A stretch of DNA of 64,000 nt from an uncultured Bacilli bacterium (GCA_934096815.1 CAKOMY010000004.1:7436-71435); one strand, 5' to 3'. Positions 6,773 through 28,936 are shown, numbered from the stretch's first letter. The notes: generated from the sequence alone by a model not told the origin. Made by a program: numbers and translations.

Positions 6773-7111
6773 ATGAACATTACATTAAGAATACTATTAT
6801 TATTTTTTTCTATTTTGTATTTTGGTTATACAATTTTTAAAGTAAGAAAGGCAAGCCTTAATATTGAAGATGCTATTTTTCCTATAGTTTTTTCATTACT
6901 TTGTGTTTTTATGAGTATATTTACAAAATTTATTACTTATATTTCAGATAAATTAGGGTTTATGAGTGTTTCAAATTTTGTGTTAGTGTTTGTTATTTTA
7001 GTACTTAGTATTTATAATTTAAAAATTGTTACTAAGTATTCAAAATTAAATGAAAATGTAAAAAAACTAAATCATTTTATTGCCTTAAATGAAAAGGAGA
7101 ATAAGAAATGA
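6773..7111 (+). CDS. GtrA/GtcA-like small membrane protein (putative flippase subunit)
   Basis: 112 aa with three to four predicted TM helices. Lies directly downstream of the GtrB-like gene with a 2-nt gap, which is the standard GtrA position. Confidence 0.4.
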   Translation: MNITLRILLLFFSILYFGYTIFKVRKASLNIEDAIFPIVFSLLCVFMSIFTKFITYISDKLGFMSVSNFVLVFVILVLSIYNLKIVTKYSKLNENVKKLNHFIALNEKENKK

Positions 7112-9252: not shown

Positions 9253-10586
9253 TGATGAAGGAAAAAATAAAAAAAATTTATAATAAAATATTAGAAAGAA
9301 AATTAATTAAAAATTTTTTAATGATATTTACTGGACAAGGAATATCATCAGTATTTGGACTTTTTGCTACGATAATGATTATATCTACAATAGGATCTGA
9401 ACAACATGGCATATTAATAGTTATTCAAACATATTCAACGTTATTTTACAGTTTTTTTTCTTTTAAAACATTTCAAGCATTAATCAAATATTTAGCACAA
9501 GCAAAAAAAGAAAATGATACAGAAAATATTAAAATATATATAAAATGGTCTTTTTTGTTAGATTTGTTATCTTTATTACTAATGTTTGTCTTTGGAATTG
9601 TTTTAAAAAATCTTGTAATAAGTTGGATGAATTGGCCTACCAATATTACTAAGTATTTAATGATTTATTTAGCATTACAAATATTTTATATACAAGGAAC
9701 TACAATTGGAGTTTTAAGATCATATGAAAAATATAACTATGTTGTAACTTCACAAATTATTTCCAATGTAGTAAGGTTTGCTTTATATTTATATTGTTAT
9801 TTGAGTAAAAGTAGTTTTGATGCATTTTTTCTAGCAGAAGTTATAGCTACTTTTGTAAATTATATATTGCTTATTTATTATACTGTTAAAGTTCTAAGAG
9901 AAAATAAATTATTAGATTTTTATAAAGTTAAATTAAAATATAAGAAAGAATTTTTCATGTTTAATATATATAGTAATTTAACATCTACTTTAGATTTGCC
10001 AATTAATCAAGTTACTCAACTAATTATAAATAAATATTTAGGATTTAGCGCTAATTCAGCATATAATGTATTTGAAAAATTAGGAACTGTAATTAATAAA
10101 CTTGGTGATCCTATTAATCAAATAATATATCCAGAAATGAATTTAAAAATTGTAGATAAAGATTATGATGGAGCTAGAGATTTATCTAAAAAATTAAAGA
10201 AATTAATGTTAGGCATATTTGCAGTTTGCTTTGTAGGAACTTTGTTAACTTATAAATTATGGTTTCATTTATTTATAGATGATGTAGATTTATATATAAT
10301 TCCATTTTGCTTATATTTGGCGTTTATATCATATTCTAATGCTGCTATGGGAACGCATAATTTATTTATGGCCTTGGGGTATGTTAAATATAATATTCCG
10401 ATTTTAATAATAGTTAATTCAATATATTTGGTATTTTTGTTCTTTGCTATTCAAAATCTTGGACTAAGTGGCGTATTACTTGCTTATTTAATTCAAGCAA
10501 TGGGAATGGTTGTAATAAAAGAAATAATTTTAAAAAAACATAGATATATGGAATATGTAGATAAAAAAGGAGTCAAGAATGCTTAA
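9252..10586 (+). CDS. Wzx-type polysaccharide flippase (MOP superfamily, 'polysaccharide biosynthesis protein')
   Basis: 444 aa, about 12 TM segments. The N-terminal LMIFTGQGISSVFGLFATIMIISTIGSEQHGIL is typical of the Wzx/RfbX family. Confidence 0.65.
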   Translation: MMKEKIKKIYNKILERKLIKNFLMIFTGQGISSVFGLFATIMIISTIGSEQHGILIVIQTYSTLFYSFFSFKTFQALIKYLAQAKKENDTENIKIYIKWSFLLDLLSLLLMFVFGIVLKNLVISWMNWPTNITKYLMIYLALQIFYIQGTTIGVLRSYEKYNYVVTSQIISNVVRFALYLYCYLSKSSFDAFFLAEVIATFVNYILLIYYTVKVLRENKLLDFYKVKLKYKKEFFMFNIYSNLTSTLDLPINQVTQLIINKYLGFSANSAYNVFEKLGTVINKLGDPINQIIYPEMNLKIVDKDYDGARDLSKKLKKLMLGIFAVCFVGTLLTYKLWFHLFIDDVDLYIIPFCLYLAFISYSNAAMGTHNLFMALGYVKYNIPILIIVNSIYLVFLFFAIQNLGLSGVLLAYLIQAMGMVVIKEIILKKHRYMEYVDKKGVKNA

Positions 10587-11541
10587 ATATTCAATAATTG
10601 TACCAACTTATAATGCAGAAAAATTTATTATTAAATGTGCTGAATCTTTAAAAAATCAAAATTTTGAAGATTATGAGGTTTTATTTATTAATGATGGTTC
10701 AACTGATGATACATTAAATATATTAAATAATTATATAAAAAATAATAAATTAGATAATTTTAAAGTTATAACTAAAAAGAATGAGGGAGTAAGTAGTTCT
10801 AGAAACTATGGAATAAAGCATGCTAAGGGTGAATTTTTACTTGCAGTTGATAGTGATGATTTTGTAAGTGAAGATTTTTTAACAAAAATAGATGAGGCAG
10901 TAAATGATGATGTTGATATATTAATATTTAGTTTTTATGAATATTTTAATGATGATAATAAAAGAAAGAAAATTGGAATAAGTTCTAGTTGTGAAGATAT
11001 TAAAAGAAACGCTATGATATCAGCACCTGCTCAGTGGAATAAAGCAATTAGAAGAGAACTATTTATAAAAAATAATATTTTTTTTCCAGAAGGATTAATT
11101 TATGAAGATTTAGGAACTATTCCAAAACTTTATTTATTAACAGATAAAATTAAATTTATTGATGAGTATATTTATTATTATCGTCAACAAGAAAATTCAA
11201 TAATGCATACTTTTAATGAAAAGATATTTAATATATATCCCATATTAGAAAATTTAAAAGATTATTATGATAAAAATGATATAAAAAAATTGTATACTAA
11301 TGAATTAGAAAAAATATTTATATATAATACATTTTTTATTGTAAATACTCTTGGTTGTGTTAAATTTAAACAAAAATTAAAATATCAAAATGATTCCATA
11401 AAATTTTTGAATAAAAGTTATCCAAAGTGGTATAGAAATCCTTATTTAAAAAATGAGAAATTTAAAACAAGATTACATATTTTAATCATGAAATATAATT
11501 TCTTATTATCTATTTATAATTTGATTAGAGGTATAATATGA
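10579..11541 (+). CDS. GT2-family glycosyltransferase
   Basis: SIIVPTYNAEKFIIKCAESLKNQNFEDYEVLFINDGSTDDT...VDSDD. Paralogous to 4170..5120 and 5122..6072. Confidence 0.8.
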   Translation: MLKYSIIVPTYNAEKFIIKCAESLKNQNFEDYEVLFINDGSTDDTLNILNNYIKNNKLDNFKVITKKNEGVSSSRNYGIKHAKGEFLLAVDSDDFVSEDFLTKIDEAVNDDVDILIFSFYEYFNDDNKRKKIGISSSCEDIKRNAMISAPAQWNKAIRRELFIKNNIFFPEGLIYEDLGTIPKLYLLTDKIKFIDEYIYYYRQQENSIMHTFNEKIFNIYPILENLKDYYDKNDIKKLYTNELEKIFIYNTFFIVNTLGCVKFKQKLKYQNDSIKFLNKSYPKWYRNPYLKNEKFKTRLHILIMKYNFLLSIYNLIRGII

Positions 11542-12641
11542 AAAAGAAAGTTTTATTTATAATATGGTCATATTCTTATGGCGGAGGAGCAGAGAGAGTA
11601 CTTACAAATATCGTTAATAATTTAGACTCTTCTAAGTATGAAATTGATATTTTAGAATATTTATATGCTGGTATAAAAAAAGAAGAAATAAACGATAATA
11701 TTAATTTGCTTGATCCAATTATAGATATAACCGATAGATCTTTTGTTAATAGGGTTAATAATTGTGTCAAAGAAAAAATTGTTTTTAGGTTTCCTAAATT
11801 ATTAAGGAAAAAATATATTAAAAAAAATTATGATGTTGAAATAGCATTTAATTATTTAATTCCTACTTTTTTACTTGACTATAATGTTAAAACTATTGGA
11901 TGGTGTCATGGAGCAATAACTGACTTAAAAGATAATGATAGATTAAGAAATCTTCAAAAAAAGTATTTTGATAAAATAAATAAAATAGTTGCTATTTCTA
12001 ATAAAACTTTTGATTCTATTTTAGAAGTTTATCCAGAATATAAAGATAAAGTTAAGCTAATTTATAATGGTTTTGATAAAAATAATATTTTAATGCAAAT
12101 TAATGATTATAAATCTGATCCAATTGATATTCTTTATTGTGGTAGATTTGATGAAAATAAAAATCCAAGTAAATTTATTGAAATAATTAGAAATATAAAA
12201 AAAGTGAAAAAGGATGTTAAAGCTGGTATGCTTGGAATTGGTAAATTAGAAAAAGATATAAAAAAGATGATTGATAAGTATGAGCTTAATGATAATGTAA
12301 TATTATATGGTTATAAAAACAATCCTTATCCAATAATAAATGGCACTAAAATTATGTGTATGACATCTTATTCAGAAGGCTTTCCAACTGTTTTAATGGA
12401 AGGAATGATTTTGGGTAAACCTTTTATAAGTACTGATGTTGCTGGTACTAAAGAAATGTCTAATAATAATAAATGTGGATTTATTAGCAATGATAATAAT
12501 GAGCTATGTGATTATGCATTAAAATTATTAGATGATAAAAAACTATATGATAAAATGAGTAAAGATTCACAAATACATGCTGAAAATTTTACTTTAATGA
12601 GTCAAATAAAAAATATAGAAAGTTTGATTGATGGGAATTAG
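11538..12641 (+). CDS. GT4-family glycosyltransferase
   Basis: 367 aa. CMTSYSEGFPTVLMEGMILGKPFISTDVAGTKE is the GT4 EX7E region. Confidence 0.75.
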   Translation: MKKKVLFIIWSYSYGGGAERVLTNIVNNLDSSKYEIDILEYLYAGIKKEEINDNINLLDPIIDITDRSFVNRVNNCVKEKIVFRFPKLLRKKYIKKNYDVEIAFNYLIPTFLLDYNVKTIGWCHGAITDLKDNDRLRNLQKKYFDKINKIVAISNKTFDSILEVYPEYKDKVKLIYNGFDKNNILMQINDYKSDPIDILYCGRFDENKNPSKFIEIIRNIKKVKKDVKAGMLGIGKLEKDIKKMIDKYELNDNVILYGYKNNPYPIINGTKIMCMTSYSEGFPTVLMEGMILGKPFISTDVAGTKEMSNNNKCGFISNDNNELCDYALKLLDDKKLYDKMSKDSQIHAENFTLMSQIKNIESLIDGN

Positions 12642-12644
12642 AAT

Positions 12645-13694
12645 ATGAAAAGGATTTTAATAACTGCTGGTTATATGGGAACTGGTTCTTCAGCAATGAC
12701 TGATTTACTAAGCGAATTTAAAAATGTTAATAATAAATATAAAGATTTTGAATATATATTTTTGCATTGTCCTAATGGATTATTTGATTTAGAAGACAAA
12801 TTGCTAGTTGGCAATAATTCTATGCGTAGTGATGAAGCACTTCATGTTTTTAGAAATGCAATGAAAGACTTATATGATGTAAAATTTTGGTGGCCTGGTA
12901 ATTATAAAAATATTATTGGAGAAGACTTCATGAACATAGTTGATGAATATATTGATTCAATAACATTATTTAAAACTGATAATTTTTGGTATTATCAAGA
13001 AAAACCTACTAAAATTAATATGTTAAAATGTATATATTTTTATATTCTAAATAAGATATTTAATAATAAGTTTAAAGATAAGAAAGTTTTGAGATATGAT
13101 ACAATGCTTTTATCATATGTTGATAGTGATATATTTTACGATAAATCTAAAATATTTATTAATAAAGTAATTAATGAAATAGATAATAATGATGATGATA
13201 TATTATTAGATCAATTATTGTTACCTCATAATGCGTGGAGAATTGATAAATATTTTGAAAATAATACTAAGATGTTTATTATAGATAGAGATCCTAGAGA
13301 TTTATTTGTTCTAAATAAATATGTTTGGAGTAAAAAAGGTATCACGGTTCCTTATTCTTTTGATGTTAACAAATTTTGTATGCAGTATAGAGAAATAAGA
13401 AAAAATGTTAAAGAATATAATTCAAATTATGTTATGAAAATAAAATTTGAGGATCTTATATATAAATATGATGATACTTTAAAACAAATCAAAAAATTTA
13501 TGAATTACAAAGATAATGATCATATAAATAAGAAAAAAAGATTTGATCCAAATAAATCTATAGCTAATACGCAAGTATTTTTATCAAAAAATATTAATAA
13601 GGAAGAAATAAAATATATTGAAAAAGAACTTAAAGAGTATTTATATGATTTTCCGTATGTGGTTTCTTCTGCAATTGAAGATACAATAGATTAA
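12645..13694 (+). CDS. putative sulfotransferase-family protein
   Basis: 349 aa. N-terminal Gly-rich loop (ITAGYMGTGSSAMTDLL) resembles the 5'-PSB loop, and the mid-protein DRDPRDLFVLNKY resembles the sulfotransferase R-x-P-x-D 3'-PB region. Motif-level call only. Confidence 0.4.
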   Translation: MKRILITAGYMGTGSSAMTDLLSEFKNVNNKYKDFEYIFLHCPNGLFDLEDKLLVGNNSMRSDEALHVFRNAMKDLYDVKFWWPGNYKNIIGEDFMNIVDEYIDSITLFKTDNFWYYQEKPTKINMLKCIYFYILNKIFNNKFKDKKVLRYDTMLLSYVDSDIFYDKSKIFINKVINEIDNNDDDILLDQLLLPHNAWRIDKYFENNTKMFIIDRDPRDLFVLNKYVWSKKGITVPYSFDVNKFCMQYREIRKNVKEYNSNYVMKIKFEDLIYKYDDTLKQIKKFMNYKDNDHINKKKRFDPNKSIANTQVFLSKNINKEEIKYIEKELKEYLYDFPYVVSSAIEDTID

Positions 13695-14478: not shown

Positions 14479-15471
14479 GTGCTATATTATTTGTGTGTAA
14501 TGAAGTGTTACAGTAGTAGGGAGTTTAGCAAAAATATGTTAGATGAAGATAATAAAACAATACTTTGTAATAGAATAATAAATATATTAGCTAAAAAGGG
14601 ATTTGATAAGATAGAAGAGCCTCGAAATTTACGTTTAAGAGAACAACTTGATATTAAAGAATCTTTTAATATTGTTCTTGAGTTTTTAAAGAAGTTTGAT
14701 ATAAATTTATATAATATGTTTTTAAACTTAGCAGAAAATGATAAAGAAAGTTTTTTATTTTTAAACGAAGATATTAATGAAGATATTAAAGAATTTGCTT
14801 ATGGTTGTGTTAAAGAAGATGGAAAACTTATAATTATAGTTAAAAATAATATACGCGATGTATTTACAATTGTTCATGAGTTTATTCATAAAGTTTATTT
14901 TCAAAAACATATTAGTTCTAAAATCAATTTTAATAATTTTGTGGAAGTTTCGTCTATAACAATTGAACTATATTTGTATAAATATTTAATGGACTATACT
15001 GAATATGAATTGGATGCTGAAAAAGTAATGAAAGAACGTTACTTTTATGAGACATTAACTGGCTTTTATATAAGCTATGTTAATTTTATTAAAGAAATAT
15101 TTAAAGAAGATCCATGGGAAGCAATAAATATAGATAATTATGAAGATATCTTTAATAAAGAAATACAGTTATTACCAGTATTATATAAAAATACGTTTAT
15201 TAAGTATCATAAATATTTTGATGGTCTAATTAAAGAAGATGGTACTGATTTAGAAAATAAATTAAATTTTAGATTTAGATATGTAAATGGGCTTTATTTA
15301 GCTTCATATATTTTATATCATGATGATAGAGAATTGTTTGATAAAATGGGACTTGCAGCATATGATGATACAATTACTTTTGATTTAGATTATTTGGAAG
15401 CTGATGAATGTTTTTATAATTATTTTAATAAGTTTGTAAATAAAATCAATAATATAAGTAGAATTAGGTGA
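14479..15471 (+). CDS. hypothetical protein with HExxH motif (possible metallopeptidase-like fold)
   Basis: The ORF contains IVHEFIHKVYF (HEFIH). The start is uncertain: an internal ATG at 14537 follows a GGGAG-like RBS. Confidence 0.3.
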   Translation: MLYYLCVMKCYSSREFSKNMLDEDNKTILCNRIINILAKKGFDKIEEPRNLRLREQLDIKESFNIVLEFLKKFDINLYNMFLNLAENDKESFLFLNEDINEDIKEFAYGCVKEDGKLIIIVKNNIRDVFTIVHEFIHKVYFQKHISSKINFNNFVEVSSITIELYLYKYLMDYTEYELDAEKVMKERYFYETLTGFYISYVNFIKEIFKEDPWEAINIDNYEDIFNKEIQLLPVLYKNTFIKYHKYFDGLIKEDGTDLENKLNFRFRYVNGLYLASYILYHDDRELFDKMGLAAYDDTITFDLDYLEADECFYNYFNKFVNKINNISRIR

Positions 15472-17234: not shown

Positions 17235-17242
17235 TATTGATA

Positions 17243-17272
17243 AGCATAAGCAACACTTATGTTTTTTTCTAT
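17243..17272 (+). terminator. rho-independent terminator after uvrC
   Basis: The hairpin cataag-caaca-cttatg is followed by TTTTTTTC. Confidence 0.5.
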
Positions 17273-17412
17273 GAAAGTTAAATAGTGAACAAATGGTTGT
17301 ATTATTATGAATTATATGGTAAAATATAGCTTAAGTTTATGAGGGACTGCAAAGATTAAGTTATAGTTAAAATAAATAATAAATTATTTTAAATGAAATT
17401 TAGGGGGATTTT

Positions 17413-18438
17413 ATGATAAAAGATAATTTTACTAATATTGATAAACAAATATTTGATTCTATTTTTAGAGTTACAGAAACAATTGAAAGACTTTATGAGG
17501 GATTATATAATTTAGAAATCAAAGGACTTAAAAATAGTGAGGAATATAATAGAAAACTTAATTTGTTAAAAATATTTTTAAAGCAAGAAGAACAATTATA
17601 TAATGATGTTAAGTTTGATAAAAATAAGGTTTATTCTTGGCTAAAATATATAAAAATTGCTAAAAATGTTGGTTGTTTGGGAAATAATTTTGATAGTGTT
17701 ATATATGGTAAATATGAAAATAAAACAATAAGACGTATTTATAATAAATTATATAAGGAACTTCATATAATAAATTTAAATATTGGAGATTATTTAAATA
17801 ATGGATTTACTTTTGTAAGTTTAGGTAATGAAAATAATAGTAATTTAGAAAAGTTAATTTATAATTTAGCAATTACATATAAAGATAAAATTGAGGAAGA
17901 AGTTGATAAAGATTTTAAAAAGACTTTTTTTACTATCTTAAATGAATATATTAATGATCAAAATTATTTAGCAGTTAGAGATAAATTAATTTATACAAAA
18001 TATTATTTTTCGTTTATTTTTAGTAAATCAGAAGAATATATGCTTAGACATAGTTTTAGTGTTCCAGCTGATACTTATTTACTTTCTAAAATGGAATCGT
18101 CGAATTTAGGAGATTTATTTACAGAATCTTTTGAGGATGTTAAAGATGATTTTTGTAACGATTTGGTTACTAAGTATATAAATATATTGATTGATCAATT
18201 TGAAAATATGGAAAGTGATTTAGAAGTTATAATTTGTAAAACATTTATTAGGGCATTACTTATTAATATGAGTTATAGTCGTGTTAAAAAATTAAAAGAT
18301 GATTTTGAATACAGTTTAAATAAATTAGATAGTAATTTTCTTCAAAATAGTAAATATTTTGGATGGAATTTAGTTAATGATTGTTTCAATTCTATTAATA
18401 AAGATAGAGAAAAAGTTAAATTGATTACTTTAAAATAG
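17413..18438 (+). CDS. hypothetical protein (paralog family member 1)
   Basis: 341 aa. Shares architecture and local motifs (LYNDVKFDKNKVYSWLKYIK vs LYNDLNFDLRKIDGWICYIK) with the next ORF. Preceded by TGgTAAAAT (extended -10) and a GGGGGA RBS. No known family recognised. Confidence 0.5.
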   Translation: MIKDNFTNIDKQIFDSIFRVTETIERLYEGLYNLEIKGLKNSEEYNRKLNLLKIFLKQEEQLYNDVKFDKNKVYSWLKYIKIAKNVGCLGNNFDSVIYGKYENKTIRRIYNKLYKELHIINLNIGDYLNNGFTFVSLGNENNSNLEKLIYNLAITYKDKIEEEVDKDFKKTFFTILNEYINDQNYLAVRDKLIYTKYYFSFIFSKSEEYMLRHSFSVPADTYLLSKMESSNLGDLFTESFEDVKDDFCNDLVTKYINILIDQFENMESDLEVIICKTFIRALLINMSYSRVKKLKDDFEYSLNKLDSNFLQNSKYFGWNLVNDCFNSINKDREKVKLITLK

Positions 18439-18451
18439 TAAGGGAGACGTT

Positions 18452-19465
18452 ATGATAAAATATAATATGAGTGAAAGAGATTTGCAAGAATTAAATAAAT
18501 TAATTGAGTTTGAGAATTATATTAAAAAAATATATAAAAGATTAATTTTACTTGAATCAACAGATAGAAAAAATACTTCTAAATATCGAAAATTAATTGA
18601 ACATTTAGATGAAATAGTATATTTAGAAGATAAATTATATAATGATTTAAATTTTGATTTAAGAAAGATTGATGGCTGGATTTGCTATATTAAAAATAAT
18701 AAGTTGACTCATAAAAGAGCTGAAGATATGATAATTAGTGGATATGCTGATTACATAACTTATGAAAGAATTTATTATGCATTGCAGTATATTCGAAATT
18801 TAAAAATGAATAGCTTGGAAGATTTATCTTGGCTTGGTATAAAAATTGAACAAGTCTCTTTTGGAAAAAATGTGAAAACAGATACATTAGATCAACTAGT
18901 AGCAATGACCTCAAAATTATCAAATGCATATTTAGAAGATTATTGTACTGTTGCATTAATGTTTTTAGAAGAATGTATTCAAAAAGAGATAAACGATGAT
19001 GTTAAGAAAAAGTTAATTGAAAGAAAGTATTATATTATTTATATTTATAGAACTATTGAAAAAATGATGTTAAATAATACGTTTGAATTTCCTAAACAAA
19101 TTTATTCTAATTCAAAAATGGTAAGTAGTATATTTAATTATGACGATCAAATTGATAGAGATAATTATTTTTCAATGAGTTTAACAACATTAATTAATCA
19201 ATATATGAATATTGAACTTTTTGATAAAAATTATACTGATTGTATGGCATCTAAGAAAGTAATTGAATGTTTAATTAAAAGTAAACTTGCAAATGTGAGT
19301 GTGGAGATGATAGAAAAAGATATTATTTTTTTAAAGCATAACTTAGAACAATTATTAAATGTTTCAGTTGTTAGAGATAAAGCAAAAGAAGTTATTGATT
19401 TATTAAATAATACTAAAATTTATCGTGAGCGTGTAGGTACTATTACATTTGGTATTAAAAGATAA
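18452..19465 (+). CDS. hypothetical protein (paralog family member 2)
   Basis: 337 aa. Distant paralog of 17413..18438. RBS GGGAG. Confidence 0.5.
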   Translation: MIKYNMSERDLQELNKLIEFENYIKKIYKRLILLESTDRKNTSKYRKLIEHLDEIVYLEDKLYNDLNFDLRKIDGWICYIKNNKLTHKRAEDMIISGYADYITYERIYYALQYIRNLKMNSLEDLSWLGIKIEQVSFGKNVKTDTLDQLVAMTSKLSNAYLEDYCTVALMFLEECIQKEINDDVKKKLIERKYYIIYIYRTIEKMMLNNTFEFPKQIYSNSKMVSSIFNYDDQIDRDNYFSMSLTTLINQYMNIELFDKNYTDCMASKKVIECLIKSKLANVSVEMIEKDIIFLKHNLEQLLNVSVVRDKAKEVIDLLNNTKIYRERVGTITFGIKR

Positions 19466-19496
19466 TAACAATTTTATTTAAAAGGGGGATTTTATT

Positions 19497-20327
19497 ATGA
19501 ATACTGTACAAAAAGACTTAAATTATATATTTAGTGATAAAAAGCAAGGCGACTTTGCTTATTTGTATTCAAGAACTAATGAAGATTTAAAAAGATTATT
19601 TGAAATTATTGATGTTAGAAATAAAAATGTATTGTCTGTTTTATCTTCTTCTGATTATTTATTTTCAGCATTATATAAGGAAGCTGGAAATATAGAAACA
19701 TTTGATATTAATCGTATTACTTATAGATATTATTTTTTAAGAAAATGGCTTATTCAAAATGGATATTTAGATGCTGGTAAAGTGTGTACACAAGATATAT
19801 TTAAAATTATTTCTTCTATTAAAACAGATAATCAAGGTGAAAAAGATAGCTTATTATTTTGGAAATATTTCTTTAATCTTTCAAGATGTAAGAAAGATAA
19901 TTTATATTATTATGATAATTTATTTATTGATATAAATGCTAAGAAAATGATATATGAAGATGATTTAAGTAATGTAGCAGATATTTTAGATGGCTATAAC
20001 TTGCAGTTTAAACATATGAATGTATGTAATGGATTTAATTCTGATAAGAAATATGATGTTATCTTTTTATCTAATATTATGGATTATAATAGAAATAGTA
20101 AATCTAGGATTAATGATATACGTGATAATTTAGATGATTTGTTAACGGATGATGGAATTATTGTTATGGCGCATTTTAATTTCTTTTCGGGATTTAATAT
20201 AGAAAAAGATGTTTTTAATAAAACGTTTGATTATATTCCTCTTGATATTACTGATAGTTCAATAACTTATTATGCTTATAAAAAGAAAAAGAAATATTAT
20301 AATGGTGCAAAGATTAAAACCAGATAA
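19497..20327 (+). CDS. hypothetical protein, weakly class-I SAM-methyltransferase-like
   Basis: 276 aa. NVLSVLSSSDYLF (motif-I-like), IETFDIN (acidic motif-II-like) and DVIFLSNIMDY (motif-IV-like). This is a weak, motif-only call. Confidence 0.25.
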   Translation: MNTVQKDLNYIFSDKKQGDFAYLYSRTNEDLKRLFEIIDVRNKNVLSVLSSSDYLFSALYKEAGNIETFDINRITYRYYFLRKWLIQNGYLDAGKVCTQDIFKIISSIKTDNQGEKDSLLFWKYFFNLSRCKKDNLYYYDNLFIDINAKKMIYEDDLSNVADILDGYNLQFKHMNVCNGFNSDKKYDVIFLSNIMDYNRNSKSRINDIRDNLDDLLTDDGIIVMAHFNFFSGFNIEKDVFNKTFDYIPLDITDSSITYYAYKKKKKYYNGAKIKTR

Positions 20328-20330
20328 ATT

Positions 20331-21185
20331 TTGTTATTTAAGCAAAACAGAAAGGGTGATATCGTGAAGATATATGAATTAAAAGATGGATGTCAATTAA
20401 AGCTAATACAAAAAATACATAAGTTAGAAATATTTGGACAAGATGTTGAAGATATTTCTTATGATATTAAAATAATAACCGATGGTTTTATTGATTCCAA
20501 TAATGATATAAGTGAAATATATGACTATTATTCAAAAGATGATATTGTTAGAACTACAAATTTATATTTAAAAAATTATACTTATGCTATTGTTTTAACT
20601 ATTGGACGTGAATCATTTTATAATGGTAAAGTCGGAGGCGTTATTGATTGCATTAAAAATATTACTTTATATTTAAGAAATTTAAATGATAAAGAGGCAT
20701 TAAAAACAGCAAAAGAAGTAATAAAGCAAATTAGACAAGCAAATAGAGAATATAAAGACTTTTCAATGAATTCTTTATTGCGAGAAGAAAATAATGATTT
20801 TATATTTAACGTTCTTGATGAAAATGTATATTTTGCAAAAAAACTAATTAATGAAAAAACAAAAAAATATAGAGTATCTGATTTATATTTGATAAGTGCT
20901 AAGGGTAAAGAAAGAATAAACTATTTTTTATGCACATATAATCCTTTATATAATTGTTATATCGAGGTTTTAACAAATAATATTATAGAGCCAGATAGCG
21001 ATATAGAAGAAAATTACCTTCCTTCAATTCTAAATGAACTTAATATAAAAATAAGTTTACATAAAAAATTAAATTATTATGAGTTGATATATTTATATGA
21101 TAAGATTAGGAATATATCTGTTCCTAATTTAGAAGATAAGCATAATTTGATTGATAGTGGTAAGAAAGTAATAGTTAAAAAATAA
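20331..21185 (+). CDS. hypothetical protein
   Basis: 284-aa ORF with a normal RBS. No family recognised. Confidence 0.45.
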   Translation: MLFKQNRKGDIVKIYELKDGCQLKLIQKIHKLEIFGQDVEDISYDIKIITDGFIDSNNDISEIYDYYSKDDIVRTTNLYLKNYTYAIVLTIGRESFYNGKVGGVIDCIKNITLYLRNLNDKEALKTAKEVIKQIRQANREYKDFSMNSLLREENNDFIFNVLDENVYFAKKLINEKTKKYRVSDLYLISAKGKERINYFLCTYNPLYNCYIEVLTNNIIEPDSDIEENYLPSILNELNIKISLHKKLNYYELIYLYDKIRNISVPNLEDKHNLIDSGKKVIVKK

Positions 21186-21193
21186 AGCCTAAT

Positions 21194-21244
21194 TTGAACA
21201 AAAACGAACAAAAGATTAAAATTATATAAGAAGTATGCTATAAT
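21194..21244 (+). promoter_or_regulatory. cassette promoter P-A1 with phased upstream direct repeats
   Basis: GAACAAAAACGAACAAAAG (two GAACAAAA repeats 10 bp apart), then a TTAAAA -35, a 17-bp spacer and TGCTATAAT (extended -10) at 21236..21244. Confidence 0.55.
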
Positions 21245-21265
21245 ACCAGTAATTTAAGGGAGTGA

Positions 21266-21895
21266 ATGGTTATGGAATTTAAAATATATTTTAATGATAA
21301 TAATAGTGTTGAAATATTAGATGAAGAACTACAAAAAATTGGTATTAATGAACTTTTACAAAGATTAAAAAATAGTGATTATAATGAAGAACATAAATTT
21401 ATTTTTCTCGATTCAAATAATAACGAAATTTGGTTAGAAACATTTGAAGGCTATGGAACTACTTTATGTGAAATTAATGTTGACGCTAGGTTTAGAGGTT
21501 ATTATGATGTAGATCGTAATGCTAGTTTTGAGTTAAAATTTGATATGGAAAACATTAATTATCATGCATTTGGTAGAGGATCATCTTGTGGTGCAAATTA
21601 TTTTACATTTGGTAATGATGTAATAAATGACATAATAGATTGTTGGTGGGAAAAAGCGTGGCTTTATAGAGATTATGGAAATTTTGAAAATATTTTTAAT
21701 TCTATTTTAAAAATTGAATTTCAAAGAGCAATAGATTATCGGAAACATAATTTTTCTAAAATAAAAGAACATCTTTTATTTTATCAACAAAGGCTTTTAT
21801 TTGAAAAGAAACAAATAGATGATAAATTAGAACATAATTCTTTATTACTTTCAAAATTAGAAGATGAGAAAAATAAAGGGTTACGTATAAAGTAA
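21266..21895 (+). CDS. cassette protein A1 (conserved N/C termini, variable core)
   Basis: 209 aa. The N-terminal ~43 aa and the C-terminal NIF.SILKIE.QRAIDYR..NF..IKEHL block are shared with 22618..23253 and 24005..24649. The central ~80 aa are unrelated between copies. Confidence 0.6.
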   Translation: MVMEFKIYFNDNNSVEILDEELQKIGINELLQRLKNSDYNEEHKFIFLDSNNNEIWLETFEGYGTTLCEINVDARFRGYYDVDRNASFELKFDMENINYHAFGRGSSCGANYFTFGNDVINDIIDCWWEKAWLYRDYGNFENIFNSILKIEFQRAIDYRKHNFSKIKEHLLFYQQRLLFEKKQIDDKLEHNSLLLSKLEDEKNKGLRIK

Positions 21896-21914
21896 TAAGT
21901 GTAAATAATATAGG

Positions 21915-21945
21915 AATTAGTTTGAAATATAACTAATTTTTATTT
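21915..21945 (+). terminator. rho-independent terminator (cassette unit 1)
   Basis: AATTAGTT-tgaaatata-AACTAATT hairpin followed by TTTTATTT. The same element recurs at 23275 and 24673. Confidence 0.6.
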
Positions 21946-21965
21946 GGCTTTAGACGAGCAAAAGG

Positions 21966-21994
21966 TTGAAATTATATAAAAAGTGTGCTATAAT
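21966..21994 (+). promoter_or_regulatory. cassette promoter P-B1
   Basis: TTGAAA at 21966..21971, a 17-bp spacer, then TGCTATAAT. Confidence 0.6.
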
Positions 21995-22019
21995 ACCAGT
22001 AATTTAAGGGGGAATTATT

Positions 22020-22601
22020 GTGAATAATATGATTATTACATATGATTATGTTGGATTAGATGGTAAAGTATATTCTGATTCTTGTAGAGGAAATTCTGAA
22101 AGATTATTTTTGAATCTAGATGCAATTATTTCTTTTAGTGTTTACTATTTTGATGAGCAAGGAAAGTATGTTAGAGAAGCTTATTTTATTTTAAATAAAG
22201 AGAATGAGTATAGCGATAGACTTAACGAATTATATTTTAGGGAAAGTCAAAGACTAATACGTAATTGGATTAATCAAAGAGGCCTTAATAAAAATGGATA
22301 TTTTGATAGATATGATGCATTATATATTGATGGTTTTAGCACATATTCTAATGAGGAATCATTTAAAGAACTTAAAAATAAATTAGAAAAATTAGATTCA
22401 CAAAAGAATGAACAAAATGCTTTATTAAACGTTCTTGGCAAAATTAGTGATTATGCAATTTTTTTAGAAACATCATCGAATACAACAGTAGGAGAATTTA
22501 TGAATCATACTTATATGTGTTCTTCAAGAAATGAACTTACTGCTAAATTAATGGAAATGATGTTGTATGCAGAAAAAGAAAACAAAGGTAAAAGAAGATA
22601 A
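22020..22601 (+). CDS. cassette protein B1
   Basis: 193 aa with a GTG start after GGGGG. Near-identical (only a few substitutions) to 23407..23988. Confidence 0.6.
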   Translation: MNNMIITYDYVGLDGKVYSDSCRGNSERLFLNLDAIISFSVYYFDEQGKYVREAYFILNKENEYSDRLNELYFRESQRLIRNWINQRGLNKNGYFDRYDALYIDGFSTYSNEESFKELKNKLEKLDSQKNEQNALLNVLGKISDYAIFLETSSNTTVGEFMNHTYMCSSRNELTAKLMEMMLYAEKENKGKRR

Positions 22602-22617
22602 AAATTCAAGGGAGTGA

Positions 22618-23253
22618 ATGGTTATGAAATTTAAAATATATTTTAATGATAATAATAGTGTTGAAATATTAGATGAAGAACTACAAAAAATTGATATTAA
22701 TGAACTTTTACAAAGATTAAGAGATAGTGATTATAATGAGGACCATGAAATTGATTGTTATACACCGGATAATACAATTCATTTGCTCGTTAATTGTATT
22801 GATGATGTGGTAAATGATATTTTATACCAAATTTATGTTGAAACTATATATGATGATAAACATAAAGATAGTGAAAATCTAAATATGAATTTTAAAATAA
22901 CTCATGTTCGTTATGATATAGGTTCTATATATAATGCGATGTCTTTTGTTAGAAATTATGATGTATTCAGTAATGAAATGAATAATTTAATTGATGAGTG
23001 GTGCAAAAAGTCAGTTAATAATTTTAGTGAAAAAAATGAATTGAGAAATATTTTTAGTGCTATTTTAAAAATTGAAATCCAAAGAGCAATAGATTATCGA
23101 ACCAATAATTTTACTAGAATAAAGGAACATCTTCATATTTGCAAAGAAATTCTTATATATCAAAAATTAGAGATAGTTCATAAAATTGAGTCTTATTCTA
23201 AATTATTTTCAGTATTAGATAATGAAAGTAAAAGAAAAAATTTAAAGAAATAG
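22618..23253 (+). CDS. cassette protein A2
   Basis: 211 aa. Follows B1 by 16 nt carrying an AGGGAG RBS (co-transcribed). Termini conserved, core variable. Confidence 0.6.
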   Translation: MVMKFKIYFNDNNSVEILDEELQKIDINELLQRLRDSDYNEDHEIDCYTPDNTIHLLVNCIDDVVNDILYQIYVETIYDDKHKDSENLNMNFKITHVRYDIGSIYNAMSFVRNYDVFSNEMNNLIDEWCKKSVNNFSEKNELRNIFSAILKIEIQRAIDYRTNNFTRIKEHLHICKEILIYQKLEIVHKIESYSKLFSVLDNESKRKNLKK

Positions 23254-23274
23254 ATATAAAATATTTTATGTATA

Positions 23275-23305
23275 AATTAGTTTGAAATATAACTAATTTT
23301 TATTT
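23275..23305 (+). terminator. rho-independent terminator (cassette unit 2)
   Basis: Identical AATTAGTTtgaaatataAACTAATT hairpin plus a T-run. Confidence 0.6.
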
Positions 23306-23330
23306 GATTTTAGGTGAGAAATACTTAATT

Positions 23331-23380
23331 TGAACAAAAACGAACAAAAGGTTGAAATTATATAAAATGTATGCTATAAT
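23331..23380 (+). promoter_or_regulatory. cassette promoter P-B2 with phased upstream direct repeats
   Basis: GAACAAAAACGAACAAAAG, then TTGAAA at 23352..23357, a 17-bp spacer and TGCTATAAT. Confidence 0.6.
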
Positions 23381-23406
23381 ACCAGTAATTTAAGGGGGAA
23401 ATTATT

Positions 23407-23988
23407 ATGAATAATATGATTATTACATATGATTATGTTGGATTAGATGGTAAAGTATATTCTGATTCTTGTAGAGGAAATTCTGAAAGATTATTTTTGA
23501 ATCTAGATGCAATTATTTCTTTTAGTGTTTACTATTTTGATGAGCAAGGAAAGTATGTTAGAGAAGCTTATTTTATTTTAAATAAAGAGAATGAGTATAG
23601 CGATAGACTTAACGAATTATATTTTAGGGAAAGTCAAAGACTAATACGTAATTGGATTAATCAAAGAGGCCTTAATAAAAATGGATATTTTGATAGATAT
23701 GATGCATTATATATTGATGGTTTTAACGCATATTCCAATGAAGAATCATTTAAAGAACTTAAAAATAAATTAGAAAAATTAGATTCACAAAAGGATGAAC
23801 AAAATGCTTTATTAAGTGTTCTTGGCAAAATCAAGGATTATGCAATTTCTTTAGAAACATCATCAAATACAACAGTAGAAGAATTTATGAAACATACTCA
23901 TATGTGTTCTTCAAGAAAAGAATTTACTGCTAAATTAATGGAAATGATGTTGTGTGCAGAAAAAGAAAACAAGGGTAAAAGAAGATAA
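23407..23988 (+). CDS. cassette protein B2
   Basis: 193 aa with an ATG start. Near-identical to B1. Confidence 0.6.
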   Translation: MNNMIITYDYVGLDGKVYSDSCRGNSERLFLNLDAIISFSVYYFDEQGKYVREAYFILNKENEYSDRLNELYFRESQRLIRNWINQRGLNKNGYFDRYDALYIDGFNAYSNEESFKELKNKLEKLDSQKDEQNALLSVLGKIKDYAISLETSSNTTVEEFMKHTHMCSSRKEFTAKLMEMMLCAEKENKGKRR

Positions 23989-24004
23989 AAATTTAAGGGA
24001 GTGA

Positions 24005-24649
24005 ATGGTTATGAAATTTAAAATATATTTTAATGATAATAATAGTGTTGAAATATTAGATGAAAAATTACAAAAAATTAGTGTTAATGAACTTTTACAA
24101 AAATTAATAGATAGTGATTATAATGAGGAACATGAAATTGAATTTTATACAAAAAATAATGACAAAATTTCTTTTATAGCAGGAAATTCTTATGAAGTGT
24201 TAAACGGAACTTTATATCAAATTCGTGCTAAAGCTTTTTGCTATGATGATTTATTAGATTTTAAATATATTGGTTGTTTAGATATATTTTTTAAAATATC
24301 CGAGGTTTATTGCTATATAAGCAATTTATACAGTCCTATGCTCTTATATCCAAGTTATAGTTTATTCAATGAGAAAATGAATGATATAATTAATAAATGG
24401 TGGAAAAGCACAGTTAATATTAGTGTAAATGATGAATTTAGAAATATATTTAATGCTATTTTGAAAATTGAAATTCAAAGAGCAATAGAATATCGAACTA
24501 ATAATTTTACTAAAATAAAGGAAAATCTTCTAGTTTATAAAAAAATTCTTTTAGATCAAAAGAAAGAGATAGATGATAAAATTGATTCTTGCTCTTCAGT
24601 ATTGCTATTATTAGATGATGAAAGTAAAAAATTAAATTTAAGGAAATAA
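24005..24649 (+). CDS. cassette protein A3
   Basis: 214 aa. Termini conserved, core variable. RBS AGGGAG. Confidence 0.6.
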   Translation: MVMKFKIYFNDNNSVEILDEKLQKISVNELLQKLIDSDYNEEHEIEFYTKNNDKISFIAGNSYEVLNGTLYQIRAKAFCYDDLLDFKYIGCLDIFFKISEVYCYISNLYSPMLLYPSYSLFNEKMNDIINKWWKSTVNISVNDEFRNIFNAILKIEIQRAIEYRTNNFTKIKENLLVYKKILLDQKKEIDDKIDSCSSVLLLLDDESKKLNLRK

Positions 24650-24672
24650 ATATTAAATATTCTTATATAAGA

Positions 24673-24703
24673 ATTGGTTTGAAATATAACTAATTTTTAT
24701 TTA
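24673..24703 (+). terminator. rho-independent terminator (cassette unit 3)
   Basis: AATTGGTTtgaaatataAACTAATT hairpin plus a T-run. Confidence 0.55.
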
Positions 24704-24779
24704 GTTTAGGTGAAAAATAGTTTGACTTTATGGGCTATTTTAAGTAAAATATTAGTATAGTTGATTATTAAAGAAGAAG

Positions 24780-24975
24780 TAATTATTAGGCAATATATTT
24801 AAAGAGAGAGTTAGTTGGTGGAAATACTTAATATGTAATAATTATGAGACATTCTTAATATAAAATAATCCGGGTAACTACGATATAAGTTTAATAAAGG
24901 CTTTAACAAGTGAAATAAGGTGGCACAGCGGATATATTTCGCCCTTAACTATTATTTCCTTGTTTTTTATTTTAA
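24780..24975 (+). promoter_or_regulatory. putative T-box riboswitch leader of the hisS operon
   Basis: AAUAAGGUGGCACAGCGG at 24914..24931 resembles the T-box consensus AAUUAGGGUGGUACCGCGG. An alternative pairing of GAAAUAAGG with CCUUAACUAUUAUUUC precedes a U-run (24960..24973). An AGAGAGA-rich 5' region and CAU/CAC triplets are present. The full fold was not verified. Confidence 0.45.
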
Positions 24976-26253: not shown

Positions 26254-27627
26254 ATGTTAAAAATGGATATAAAAGATTTATTTAAAGAAAGTTATATTGG
26301 AAAAAAAGTTACAATTTCAGGATGGGTTAGAAATCATAGAAAGAGTTCAAATTTTGCTTTTATAGTACTATCTGATGGAACAACTATTAATACTTTACAA
26401 GTTGTTTATGATACTAGTTTAAGTAATTATGAAGAAATTAATAAAGTACTTGTTGGATCTAGTTTAGAAGTAGCCGGAACTATTGTTGAATCTAGTGGAA
26501 ATCAAGATTTTGAACTTAAAGCAGAAAGTATTAAGGTTCTTGGACTTGCTGATGAAACTTATCCAATTCAAGCTAAAAGACATACTAGAGAGTTTTTAAG
26601 GGAAGTAGGTCATTTAAGAGCTAGAACTAATTTATTTAATGCGGTATTTAGAGTAAGAAGTGTTGCTGCTATGGCAATTCATAAATATTTTCAAGATCGT
26701 AATTATGTATATTTTCATGCTCCAATTATAACTAGTTCTGATTGTGAAGGAGCAGGAGAAATGTTCCAAGTTACAACTCTTGATTTAAATCGTATAGCAT
26801 CAAGTGGTAAATATGAACCGGAAAAAGATTTTTATGGTAAAACAACGGGATTAACTGTTAGTGGCCAATTAGAGGCTGAAACATTTGCAACAGCGTTTAA
26901 GAAAACTTATACTTTTGGTCCTACTTTTAGAGCAGAAAACTCAAATACGAAAGTTCATGCTTCTGAGTTCTGGATGATTGAGCCGGAAATTTCCTTTTGT
27001 GATTTAGAAGGCGATATGGACATAATGGAAGATATGCTTAAATATGTTGTTAGTTATGTTTTAGAAAATGCGAAAGATGAAATGAAATTCTTAGATCAAT
27101 TTGTAGAAAAAGGATTAATAGATAAGTTAACTAGATTAGTTAATAGTAAATTTACAAGAATTGATCATAAAGATGTTATTACTATTTTAAAAAAAGCTGA
27201 TGTTAAGTGGGAATTTGAGCCAGCCTATGGTGAAGATATTGCTAAAGAACATGAAAAATATATTACTGAATACTTTAATGGACCAGTATTTATTAAGAAT
27301 TGGCCAAAAGATATTAAGGCATTTTATATGAAACAAAATGAAGATGGAGAAACAGTTGCTGCTGTTGATTTAGAAGTACCAGGTGCTGGTGAATTGATGG
27401 GTGGATCTCAAAGAGAAGAAAGTTATGAAAAATTAGTAAAACGTATGGATGAACTAGGAATGAATAAAGAAGAACTTGCTTGGTATTTAGATTTAAGAAA
27501 ATATGGTACTTGTATACATTCTGGATTTGGTATGGGATTTGAAAGATTACTTATTTATATTACAGGTATTGATAATATTCGTGATGTTATTCCTTATCCA
27601 AGAACACCAGGAAATTGTGAATTTTAA
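26254..27627 (+). CDS. asnS: asparagine--tRNA ligase
   Basis: 457 aa. N-terminal OB anticodon-binding domain, motif 2 FRAENSNTKVHASEFWMIEPE and motif 3 GFGMGFERLLIYITGIDNIRDVIPYPRT match AsnRS. Confidence 0.8.
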   Translation: MLKMDIKDLFKESYIGKKVTISGWVRNHRKSSNFAFIVLSDGTTINTLQVVYDTSLSNYEEINKVLVGSSLEVAGTIVESSGNQDFELKAESIKVLGLADETYPIQAKRHTREFLREVGHLRARTNLFNAVFRVRSVAAMAIHKYFQDRNYVYFHAPIITSSDCEGAGEMFQVTTLDLNRIASSGKYEPEKDFYGKTTGLTVSGQLEAETFATAFKKTYTFGPTFRAENSNTKVHASEFWMIEPEISFCDLEGDMDIMEDMLKYVVSYVLENAKDEMKFLDQFVEKGLIDKLTRLVNSKFTRIDHKDVITILKKADVKWEFEPAYGEDIAKEHEKYITEYFNGPVFIKNWPKDIKAFYMKQNEDGETVAAVDLEVPGAGELMGGSQREESYEKLVKRMDELGMNKEELAWYLDLRKYGTCIHSGFGMGFERLLIYITGIDNIRDVIPYPRTPGNCEF

Positions 27628-27646: not shown

Positions 27647-28936
27647 ATGAAAAGAGTATTAATTAAAAATTTAGAAGAGAATGAATTATCTAAAATTTCA
27701 GGAATGATTAAAACTATTAGAAATACCAAGTATATGATTTTTATTAAATTAAAAGATAGAACTGGGTATATTCAAGTTTCGGTTGATAAGATTAAAGAAG
27801 AACTTGCTGAGAAATGTGCTGCTTTAACAACTGGTTCTTTTGTATCATTTACTGGTAAAATGGTTATGAGTGAATATGTTAAAGATGGTGGTAAGGAATT
27901 TTTACCAGATGATGTAGAGATTTTATCACTAGCAGAAGCTTACCCAATTGAAGAAAATGCATTACCTGATAAGAAGTTAGATTATAGATGGATTGATTTA
28001 AGATGTGATGCTAAAGAATATATTATTCCTATTCAAAGTGCGTTTGTTAAATATTTGAGAGATTATTTATATAATCAAGATTTTACTGAGATTCATACTC
28101 CTAAGATTATAGGTACAGCTTCTGAATCTGGTTCATCTGTGTTTGAAGTTAAATATTTTAATGATAAAGCTTATTTAGCTCAAAGTCCTCAATTTTATAA
28201 ACAAATGGCTATTGCTTCTGGTTTAGAAAGAGTTTTTGAAGTTGCTCCGGCATTTAGAGCAGAGAACTCTAACACTAATAGACATTGTACTGAGTTTACA
28301 TCTTTTGACCTTGAATTTGCTTATATTAATTCATATGAAGACGTTATGCATTTAGAAGAAGAAATGCTTACTTATGCACTTGGAAAATTAAAAGAAAATT
28401 TTGGAGATATAATTAAAGAAAGATTTGGACAAGAAGTTATTGTTCCTAATAAGGCTTTTCCTAAAATTAAGTTATTTGATTTATATAAAGAATTAGAAAA
28501 AAGATATGGTTATAAAATTCCAGAACATGATATTGGAGATTTAAATGCGGAAACTGAGAAGTTAGCTTGTAAATTTGCAATGGAAGAATATGGTTCTGAA
28601 TTCTTATTCATAACTGATTATAATAAGGCTAAAAGACCTTTCTATCATATGAGAGATGAAAATGATGTTCCTCAAGGATATGACTTATTATGGAGAGGTA
28701 TGGAAATAACTAGTGGTTCTCAAAGAGAACATAGATATGATCATTTAAGACATAATGCGGATGAAAAAGGTTTAACTAAAGATGTTGAATTTTACATGCA
28801 ATTCTTTAAATATGGTATGCCACCTCATGGCGGATTTGCAATTGGAGTAGATAGATTAACATTATTGTTATTAGGACTTGACCATATTAGGGATGCACAG
28901 TTTATCTTTAGAGGACCTAATAGATTATATCCATAG
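27647..28936 (+). CDS. aspS: aspartate--tRNA ligase, archaeal/eukaryal type (AspRS2, likely non-discriminating)
   Basis: 429 aa. FRAENSNTNRHCTEFTSFDLE and the C-terminal GGFAIGVDRLTLLLLG...RGPNRLYP are typical of type-2 AspRS. Sits immediately upstream of gatCAB. Confidence 0.75.
   Translation: MKRVLIKNLEENELSKISGMIKTIRNTKYMIFIKLKDRTGYIQVSVDKIKEELAEKCAALTTGSFVSFTGKMVMSEYVKDGGKEFLPDDVEILSLAEAYPIEENALPDKKLDYRWIDLRCDAKEYIIPIQSAFVKYLRDYLYNQDFTEIHTPKIIGTASESGSSVFEVKYFNDKAYLAQSPQFYKQMAIASGLERVFEVAPAFRAENSNTNRHCTEFTSFDLEFAYINSYEDVMHLEEEMLTYALGKLKENFGDIIKERFGQEVIVPNKAFPKIKLFDLYKELEKRYGYKIPEHDIGDLNAETEKLACKFAMEEYGSEFLFITDYNKAKRPFYHMRDENDVPQGYDLLWRGMEITSGSQREHRYDHLRHNADEKGLTKDVEFYMQFFKYGMPPHGGFAIGVDRLTLLLLGLDHIRDAQFIFRGPNRLYP

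Follow-up and report, generated by a model that had tools for sequence, protein, structure and literature searches.

A strain-variable accessory slot with modular cargo between uvrC and hisS in uncultured gut Bacilli

Introduction

Hotspots between core genes that hold varied defence cargo are established in Pseudomonas aeruginosa (cDHS1 and cDHS2; PMC10250203) and in Escherichia coli (PMC10121019). SoFic, for its part, has been validated as an abortive-infection defence (PMC12249575). Here, we analyse a stretch of 64,000 nucleotides (nt) from an uncultured Bacilli bacterium (GCA_934096815.1, CAKOMY010000004.1:7436-71435), hereafter called the window, and within it the interval between uvrC and hisS, which carries four genes, named O1 to O4, followed by an array of A and B cassettes. 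A first-pass annotation of the sequence had described O1-O4 as one block in an accessory island, possibly a defence or competition locus functionally linked to the cassettes.

Like the hotspots mentioned above, the site is fixed between housekeeping genes and its cargo depends on the strain; most of this cargo is functionally unassigned and at least one variant, a SoFic-like Fic protein, is defence-like. Unlike them, the uvrC-hisS slot is tiny (0.2-7.5 kb), is arranged as an operon behind one promoter, has no mobile-element genes and is known from sequence alone. Accessory hotspots between core genes are a known kind of locus, and the present one is a new instance of it, with uncharacterised cargo families. 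Reduced-genome uncultured Bacilli of the gut are frequent in non-industrialised human populations and in animals. To our knowledge, next to nothing is known of their accessory genes.

The best explanation overall, to which we give a probability of about one half, is that of a strain-variable accessory slot with modular cargo, in which genetic conflict is the leading, tentative candidate for the role of O1 and O2. The slot is described first, then its genes, and then the possible functions are weighed.

The uvrC-hisS interval is a strain-variable slot

All four open reading frames (ORFs) lie on the plus strand where they had been placed (Table 1). The interval was compared among conspecific contigs, defined by uvrC and hisS proteins 97-100% identical to those of the window. 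Ten arrangements were found. The window and contig L004 have the order O1-O2-O3-O4-A-B-A-B-A, and L001 has the same with an additional 146-amino-acid (aa) ORF, O0, ahead of O1. The order is O0-O1-O2-O3-O4-A-B-A in L002, L003 and L006, O0-O1-O2-O3-O4-B-A-B-A plus an A fragment and a 330-aa repeat protein in L005, and O1-O2-O3-O4 plus an A copy, an A fragment and the 330-aa repeat protein in L007. In L034, diverged alleles O0', O1' and O2' are followed by a pseudo-O4; these alleles keep positional orthology, O1' being 64% identical to O1 and O2' 47% to O2. The remaining contigs carry O2'' (43%) and then O3 (L098), O3-O4-B-A (L107), O3-O4 (L109), or a 491-aa Fic protein followed by a frameshifted pseudo-O3 and an intact O4 (L108).

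Since content varies in this way between nearly invariant uvrC and hisS genes, the interval extending from the uvrC terminator (about 17.27 kb) to the hisS promoter and T-box (about 24.72 kb) is almost certainly a strain-variable accessory slot composed of independent modules. These modules, (O0)-O1-O2, O3, O4 and zero to three B-A units, are gained and lost independently, and in some strains the Fic protein or the 330-aa repeat protein is added. The four genes do not behave as the single block first described: O1-O2, O3 and O4 each occur without the others (L034, L098, L107, L108, L109). The functional tie to the cassettes fares no better. The cassettes are absent from L034, L098, L108 and L109, and L107 has them in the absence of O1-O2; an obligate link is therefore unsupported.

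The edges of the slot are sharp: nucleotide identity between the window and conspecific contigs is lost at 17346-17351 and regained at 24645-24722. Human-gut metagenome contigs carry identical or nearly identical copies of it, Hadza samples among them, and the exact sequences of O1, O2, O3 and O4 (in its 273-aa form) are found on 57, 45, 37 and 15 contigs, respectively.

Table 1. Features of the uvrC-hisS interval and of its edges, in window coordinates
Feature	Position	Strand	Remarks
uvrC terminator-like hairpin, 9 bp + U7	17242-17268	+	fold -6.9 kcal/mol; left edge of variable region
Operon promoter (predicted), TTGTAT-17 nt-TGGTAAAAT, extended -10	17297-17325	+	conserved across variants, including L001, L107, L108 and L109
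O1, 341 aa	17413-18438	+	all-alpha cytoplasmic protein (model); member of a large uncharacterised family
O2, 337 aa	18452-19465	+	paralog of O1; most diverged gene between strains
O3, 276 aa	19497-20327	+	divergent protein of putative class-I S-adenosylmethionine (SAM)-methyltransferase fold, DUF3419/NodS/CheR-like
O4, 273 aa (284 aa if TTG 20331)	20364-21185	+	lineage-restricted, highly polymorphic, mosaic protein
71-nt promoter/5' untranslated region repeat, first copy	21190-21260	+	family D4; heads cassette array
A/B cassette array (A1, B1, A2, B2, A3)	21266-24649	+	neighbouring module; 0-3 units across conspecific contigs
54-nt terminator-like repeat, last copy	24665-24718	+	hairpin -11.3 kcal/mol; right edge of variable region
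hisS promoter-like site	24722-24750	+	from generic promoter scan; start of conserved flank
T-box leader of hisS	24762-24949	+	Rfam RF00230, 47.5 bits, E=3e-8, full-length; below gathering score of 93

The uvrC protein of the window is 98% identical to those of 'uncultured Bacilli' metagenome-assembled genomes (MAGs) and of UBA6331, 76% to that of the next species, and 42-65% to those of Candidatus Coprovivens, Coprobacillus sp. CAG:605, Erysipelotrichaceae-type MAGs and more distant Bacilli. In a survey of 80 uvrC loci of relatives (one genome per species), relatives of O1-O4 are found at uvrC in two loci only, both with a 98% identical uvrC protein; tblastn and a family hidden Markov model (HMM) agree on this point. 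The uvrC-hisS gap measures 1.4 kb (L008) and 5.6 kb (L009) in two sister species and is filled with unrelated genes, one of which, in L009, encodes a 267-aa protein. The segment is absent from these sister species and from the distant uvrC loci, and is therefore lineage-specific. The accessory character suspected at first is thus borne out, by absence from the nearest sister species and from distant relatives and by presence, absence and mosaicism among conspecific contigs; far from being universal and conserved, the locus is variable, and it matches no metabolic operon. The view that uvrC and hisS are conserved neighbours, on the other hand, holds for the closest relatives only: in most other related genomes, hisS does not lie within 10 kb of uvrC. 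Because the G+C content is uniform across the whole window (about 22%), composition is no marker of the segment.

There is no sign of an integrative mobile element or a prophage island. No integrase or recombinase domain is detected by a Pfam scan of O1-O4 and their neighbours, no direct repeats flank the variable region and there is no tRNA in the window. In tblastn searches, O1, O3, O4 and B1 have no relatives in phage records and O1 none in plasmid records; IMG/VR contigs hold no relatives of the O1/O2 alignment or of the O4 alignment. In the absence of mobility genes, modules are probably exchanged by homologous recombination via the conserved flanks and the shared promoter and terminator repeats.

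Some of the alternative cargo deserves description. O0 lies between uvrC and O1 (9545-9985 in L001; also in L002, L003, L005 and L006), has a diverged form in L034 (42% identity) and is cleanly missing from the window, at about 17330-17412, and from L004. It has no domain match and may belong with O1-O2. The 330-aa protein stands at the right end of the island, ahead of hisS (16735-17727 in L005, 16999-17991 in L007), and contains repeats of about 40 residues (FVGxFDxVxVxxTNFxGSKGxxINPQ); its sole Pfam match is an odd one to Helic-prim_T7_N, at 30 bits. All-against-all BLAST detects no relation among O0, O4, A, B and the ORF of this 330-aa protein.

The Fic protein of L108 (7452-8927) carries the motif HPFTDGNGRTSR. 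Its gene, which has a terminator of its own, is an insertion downstream of the uvrC terminator and upstream of the operon promoter, with copies of ATTGCTATT(A/C)T on either side. The protein matches Pfam Fic at 43.4 bits (cut-off 24), PADLOC PDC-S04 at E=7e-12 and SoFic at E=5e-8. The likeness to SoFic thus consists of these matches and of a Fic gene in the place of O1-O2; the window does not encode this protein, which has no sequence relationship to O1-O4, so that the comparison bears on the nature of the slot only.

Evolutionary rates in the slot and its flanks

Ratios of nonsynonymous to synonymous substitution rates (dN/dS) were calculated by the Nei-Gojobori method for each contig against the window. 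They are 0.03-0.15 for uvrC, hisS and aspS, 0.15-0.22 for O3, 0.36-0.52 for O1 and 0.48-0.99 for O4. For O2, they reach 0.56-0.66 in three diverged comparisons (L007, L034, L098), and 0.22 against the near-identical copy of L005, where substitutions are very few. O2 falls into three allele classes that are only 43-47% identical; the hisS and aspS proteins encoded by the same contigs share 98% identity with those of the window.

The window and L001-L003 have the same or almost the same O1-O3 sequences (dS<=0.017) while the dS of uvrC is 0.07-0.2, which indicates a recent exchange of cargo alleles between strains. This pattern suggests a recent transfer or sweep of the O1-O3 allele across strain backgrounds. 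The flanks recombine as well, as indicated by mosaic dS values in uvrC, hisS and aspS.

Transcription layout and cassette array

The segment had been thought to have its own promoters and terminators. A generic scan gives no support on its own for this idea, since it returns 99 promoter-like sites against 113.9 +/- 10.2 in shuffled sequences and is therefore not above chance. Two specific elements were nevertheless found, namely the uvrC terminator hairpin and a conserved operon promoter (Table 1). The same hairpin and U-run are present at the matching place in L001 despite a different sequence (z=-3.25). The promoter stands directly ahead of the first operon gene of each variant, be it O1, O0 or O3, and this one conserved, predicted promoter appears to drive whichever cargo is present.

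Within the operon, O1 and O2 are separated by 13 nt, O2 and O3 by 31 nt, and O3 and O4 by 3-36 nt. O1, O2 and O3 have a common ribosome-binding and start context, AGGGGGATTTTATG (repeat family D8). No terminator separates O4 from A1, and read-through into A1 is possible. Further copies of the 71-nt repeat, which contains TTGAAA/TTAAAA-17-TG-TATAAT plus AAGGG, occur at 21940-22010 and 23326-23396, and further copies of a 54-nt hairpin repeat (D5), which ends each cassette unit, at 21908-21961 and 23268-23321. As the two repeats bracket each unit, the array consists of A1, B1-A2 and B2-A3, three autonomous transcription units. Both repeats are likely the recombination substrates for changes in copy number. 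The shared promoter, the lack of a terminator between O4 and A1 and the repeats thus describe a single operon whose composition varies, with autonomous cassette units behind it.

O1 and O2 belong to a large unnamed family

O1 and O2 are true paralogs, as proposed from peptides that correspond to residues 62-81 of each protein: BLASTP gives 29% identity over 316 aa (E=8e-14, in a single comparison). Whereas a word-seeded search retrieves 11 clusters only, at 66% identity or more, an exhaustive profile search of the O1/O2 family retrieves at least 590 clusters (at 50% identity) with E<=1e-3, and 300 with E<=1e-10. Nearly all of the best 150 clusters are full-length, with about 300-370 aa. No name was found on those members that were looked up.

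A set of 123 diverse members shows no consistent Pfam or NCBIfam match and no sequence match in the PDB. Twelve residues are kept in 89-99% of this set (Y28, E35, Y45, L52, E59, Y63, R108, D167, K196, Y197, E207 and F215); O1 and O2 both carry Y28, E35, E59, Y63, R108, K196, Y197 and E207. The conserved polar residues E35, E59, Y63, R108, D167, K196, Y197 and E207 suggest a predicted catalytic or ligand-binding site. The C-terminal third of O1 and O2 is strain-variable, with an entropy peak at residues 256-315, and this putative surface may be a recognition part.

An AlphaFold2 model of O1 built on a 12-sequence alignment was discarded (predicted local distance difference test score, pLDDT, of 59.5). 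With the 123-sequence alignment, the pLDDT is 93.1 and the predicted template modelling (TM) score 0.91. The predicted fold is all-alpha, with about 16 helices, of which one spans 43 residues, and a two-stranded mini-sheet. Remote-homology and structure searches, which had been recommended in the first-pass annotation, brought no PDB or BFVD relative. Against the PDB, the best Foldseek match of the model has E=0.37 with TM scores of 0.2 or less, and against BFVD the best match has E=0.36. PDB sequence and profile searches with O1, O3, O4 and three family alignments return nothing below E=0.05. No internal duplication is detected in O1 by hhalign. Throughout the proteins of the segment, no hydrophobic segment of the signal-peptide or membrane-span type is seen, maximal Kyte-Doolittle means over 19 residues being 0.7-1.3, and all of them are soluble by this measure.

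The genomic contexts of family members are varied. A tandem pair occupies the pnp-smc interval of L103, where a Card1-like nuclease is encoded a few genes off; a fused two-copy protein of 694 aa and a third copy lie near an XRE regulator (L102); and a single copy adjoins TraG/VirD4, RelA_SpoT and AraC genes (L100). At 22-35% identity, tandem copies are no closer to each other than are copies taken from different genomes. O1 and O2 probably act together, as a putative hetero-oligomer of paralogs, given that both tandem pairs and a two-copy fusion recur in the family; gene order and conservation point that way. Contigs with family members are mostly short (1-25 kb) and several end at or beside the gene, which fits a location in strain-variable regions that break metagenome assemblies.

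Three candidate identities find no support. The AbiD/AbiF proteins of Firmicutes (Abi_2, HEPN-type) resemble O1/O2 in type only: about 340 aa, all-alpha, cytoplasmic, single or tandem, fast-evolving and found in low-GC Gram-positives. They differ from O1/O2, whose conserved R108 is not followed by a conserved His 4-6 residues on (Rx4-6H), and no Abi or HEPN HMM of Pfam or PADLOC matches any of the 123 members. Pore-forming toxins of the ClyA family (Nhe, Hbl, Ahl, YaxAB) share with O1/O2 the tandem, diverged paralogs of about 340 aa, the elongated all-alpha build and a very small beta element; there is neither a structural match nor a hydrophobic segment. A polymorphic toxin/immunity locus is likewise unsupported, as no LXG, Rhs or CDI-type trafficking domain and no signal-peptide-like hydrophobic segment is present.

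O3, a putative SAM-dependent transferase

The faint SAM-methyltransferase motifs reported for O3 are real and recur in its homologs; all scores are, however, below curated cut-offs. In Pfam, O3 reaches 20.4 bits with DUF3419 (cut-off 28.2) and 15.8 with CheR (cut-off 27), and also matches Methyltransf_31 and Methyltransf_12. Among 27 homologs, matches at E<0.01 are to NodS in 13 and to DUF3419 and Methyltransf_31 in nine each; sub-threshold matches to CheR are seen in five. A profile search of the PDB gives CheR at E=0.05. In all, 38 homologs were collected, down to 34% identity, and the distant ones stand alone, in unrelated contexts. 

DUF3419 is the annotation of betaine-lipid synthases of the BTA1 type (PMC10685587). 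Membership of O3 in this family is unestablished because its scores are below the cut-offs. Residues 20-79 align to the start of DUF3419 and residues 168-230 to motifs of CheR, NodS and Methyltransf_31. An acidic residue, the nearly invariant D70, would follow the second strand as in class-I methyltransferases, and a YD...LSNI.DY block is present. Unlike in these enzymes, matches remain sub-cut-off, motif I (VLSVLSSSD) has no GxGxG and there are no conserved gene partners. A similar serine-rich motif I may occur in DUF3419 proteins. In O3, this motif, VLSVLSSSDYLF, is without glycines and contains the invariant V48, L49, S51 and D53; F69, R82-K83-W84, Y186-D187 and S192-N193-I194 are also invariant.

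We infer that O3 is a SAM-dependent transferase, which probably binds SAM. The low dN/dS and the stand-alone homologs point to a gene under purifying selection, presumably for an enzyme common in this bacterial group that would be in the operon by chance.

O4, a polymorphic mosaic protein

O4 most likely starts at GTG 20364 and not at TTG 20331. The ribosome-binding site AAAGGGTGA lies 6 nt upstream of the GTG, homologs begin with MKIYELKDG and gene callers give 273 aa, the form found exactly on 15 contigs. The first description of O4 is therefore right in that it has no recognisable domain (no match in Pfam, PADLOC, NCBIfam, PHROGs or PDB sequences) and probably wrong in its length of 284 aa. 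All relatives of O4, in 65 clusters, are 60-96% identical, none being more distant. The alleles are mosaics of alternative segments, such as VSDLYLISAKGKERI versus LDDLYVVWNKNDKDI, with a conserved core at about residues 76-150 and variable N- and C-terminal parts. O4 thus appears to be a lineage-restricted polymorphic protein; profile comparison shows it to be unrelated to the O1/O2 family.

Possible functions of the slot genes

What may be said of the function of the locus is read from position and evolution. A role of O1/O2 in genetic conflict, whether in defence against phages or mobile elements or as a toxin-like abortive function, is proposed tentatively, at what we judge to be somewhat less than even odds. 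It is suggested by the SoFic-like Fic protein held by the slot in L108, by the fast evolution and deep allele classes of O1, O2 and O4, and by the known tendency of core-gene hotspots to harbour defence genes of unknown type.

Several observations weigh against such a role. Gene-wide dN/dS values below 1 are also compatible with relaxed constraint. Searches for the defence systems suspected at first found nothing that recurs: with PADLOC-DB 2.0, there is no match at E<=1 for O1-O4, A1 and B1, and the 123 family members show five scattered single matches, at E 4e-4 or weaker. For O1-O4 and their neighbours, PHROGs, Pfam, PADLOC and NCBIfam give nothing significant beyond the sub-threshold methyltransferase matches of O3. 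Several members of the family stand singly among housekeeping genes, for instance between an M20 peptidase gene and glyA and upstream of tyrS, and have neither mobile-element nor defence genes beside them; a spore-former is among the hosts of such single copies. Finally, among all cargos of the slot, the Fic protein of L108 is the only one recognised as defence-like.

In a more specific form, which we regard as doubtful, the O1/O2 family would be a new one- or two-gene defence family, widespread in gut Bacillota and directed against phages or mobile elements; its hetero-oligomer would combine a conserved site for catalysis or ligand binding with a hypervariable surface for recognition, and the slot would be a miniature defence hotspot in which it alternates with a SoFic-like gene.

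The strongest alternative, although it seems rather unlikely to us, is that these are lineage-specific cellular genes. O1/O2 would then have a regulatory, structural or enzymatic function in Erysipelotrichia-like, reduced-genome gut Bacilli, the product of O3 would transfer methyl (or aminocarboxypropyl) groups to a lipid, a small molecule or a protein, and relaxed constraint together with frequent recombination would explain the variability. The housekeeping contexts cited above (including pnp-smc), the enzyme-like conservation of some ten residues across 123 diverse members, the dN/dS and stand-alone homologs of O3, the missing defence matches and the mosaic flanks all argue in this direction. 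It is difficult to reconcile with the absence of O1-O2 from L107 and L109 and their replacement by Fic in L108, with near-conspecific O1-O2 alleles of 43-64% identity, which is unusual for cellular functions, and with the confinement of O4, in 65 allele clusters, to one lineage.

That O1-O4, with or without the A/B cassettes, make up one coherent, interdependent defence or competition system is highly unlikely. The tight spacing, the single upstream promoter and the lack of a terminator ahead of A1 would agree with it, and so would the joint occurrence of the four genes and cassettes in L001-L007; the modules are nonetheless found apart in five contigs (L034, L098, L107, L108, L109), genes of the O1/O2 and O3 families stand alone in other genomes, and O4 has no profile relationship to the O1/O2 family. 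Still less credible is the idea of functionless, decaying remnants of a mobile element or prophage. Decay is visible in the pseudo-O4 of L034, the pseudo-O3 of L108 and the deletion of O0 in the window, but ORFs are intact on dozens of contigs, dN/dS is below 1, the family residues are strongly conserved, and the searches made found no integrase, att site or tRNA, nor any relative among phages, plasmids or IMG/VR contigs. A type II restriction-modification pair formed by O3 (methyltransferase) and O4 (fast-evolving endonuclease), which would account for a methyltransferase-fold gene directly upstream of a fast-evolving orphan and for the adjacency of the two in the window and in L107-L109, can practically be dismissed, because the invariant columns of O3 hold no D/N/S-PP-Y/F or PC/ENV motif, no DNA-methyltransferase match is found in Pfam or PADLOC, O4 is intact in L108 while O3 is frameshifted there, a combination that would be lethal if the pair were active, and O3 occurs without O4 in L098 and in distant homologs.

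Taking up the favoured reading again, that of a strain-variable slot with a possible conflict role for O1/O2, the site is a small, clean case of a probable exchange by recombination and offers a handle for finding strain-specific conflict genes in these Bacilli. The O1/O2 family is the most notable by-product: it is sizeable, unnamed in Pfam, NCBIfam and PADLOC, and has a confident model without PDB or BFVD relative. Should it prove to be a defence or toxin module, a poorly sampled clade will have yielded a new system; should it prove cellular, it will all the same be a conserved uncharacterised protein of the clade.

Other features of the window

A further gene, at 14479-15471 (plus strand), overlaps the start of uvrC (15468) and encodes a 330-aa protein with a HEFIH motif (HExxH-type) and no match in Pfam, NCBIfam or PADLOC. 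This protein is hypervariable among conspecific contigs (85%, 70% and 32% identity; dN/dS 0.3-0.8) and therefore represents a second variable gene, on the upstream side of uvrC. Duplicated and fused forms of it, 610-618 aa long, occur in L034 and L107.

Farther upstream, at 7108-13694 (plus strand), lies a polysaccharide-biosynthesis cluster encoding a DUF6077-like protein of 714 aa, a Polysacc_synt flippase, glycosyltransferases of the GT2 and GT4 types and a 349-aa protein without assignment. On the other side, hisS is followed by tandem paralogs of class-II aminoacyl-tRNA synthetases of the AspRS/AsnRS type (26254-27627 and 27647-28936, plus strand; 26-27% identical), and then by gatCAB. 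A 6S RNA (RF00013, 50.3 bits) at 38034-38208 on the plus strand is the sole Rfam match of the window at the gathering threshold.

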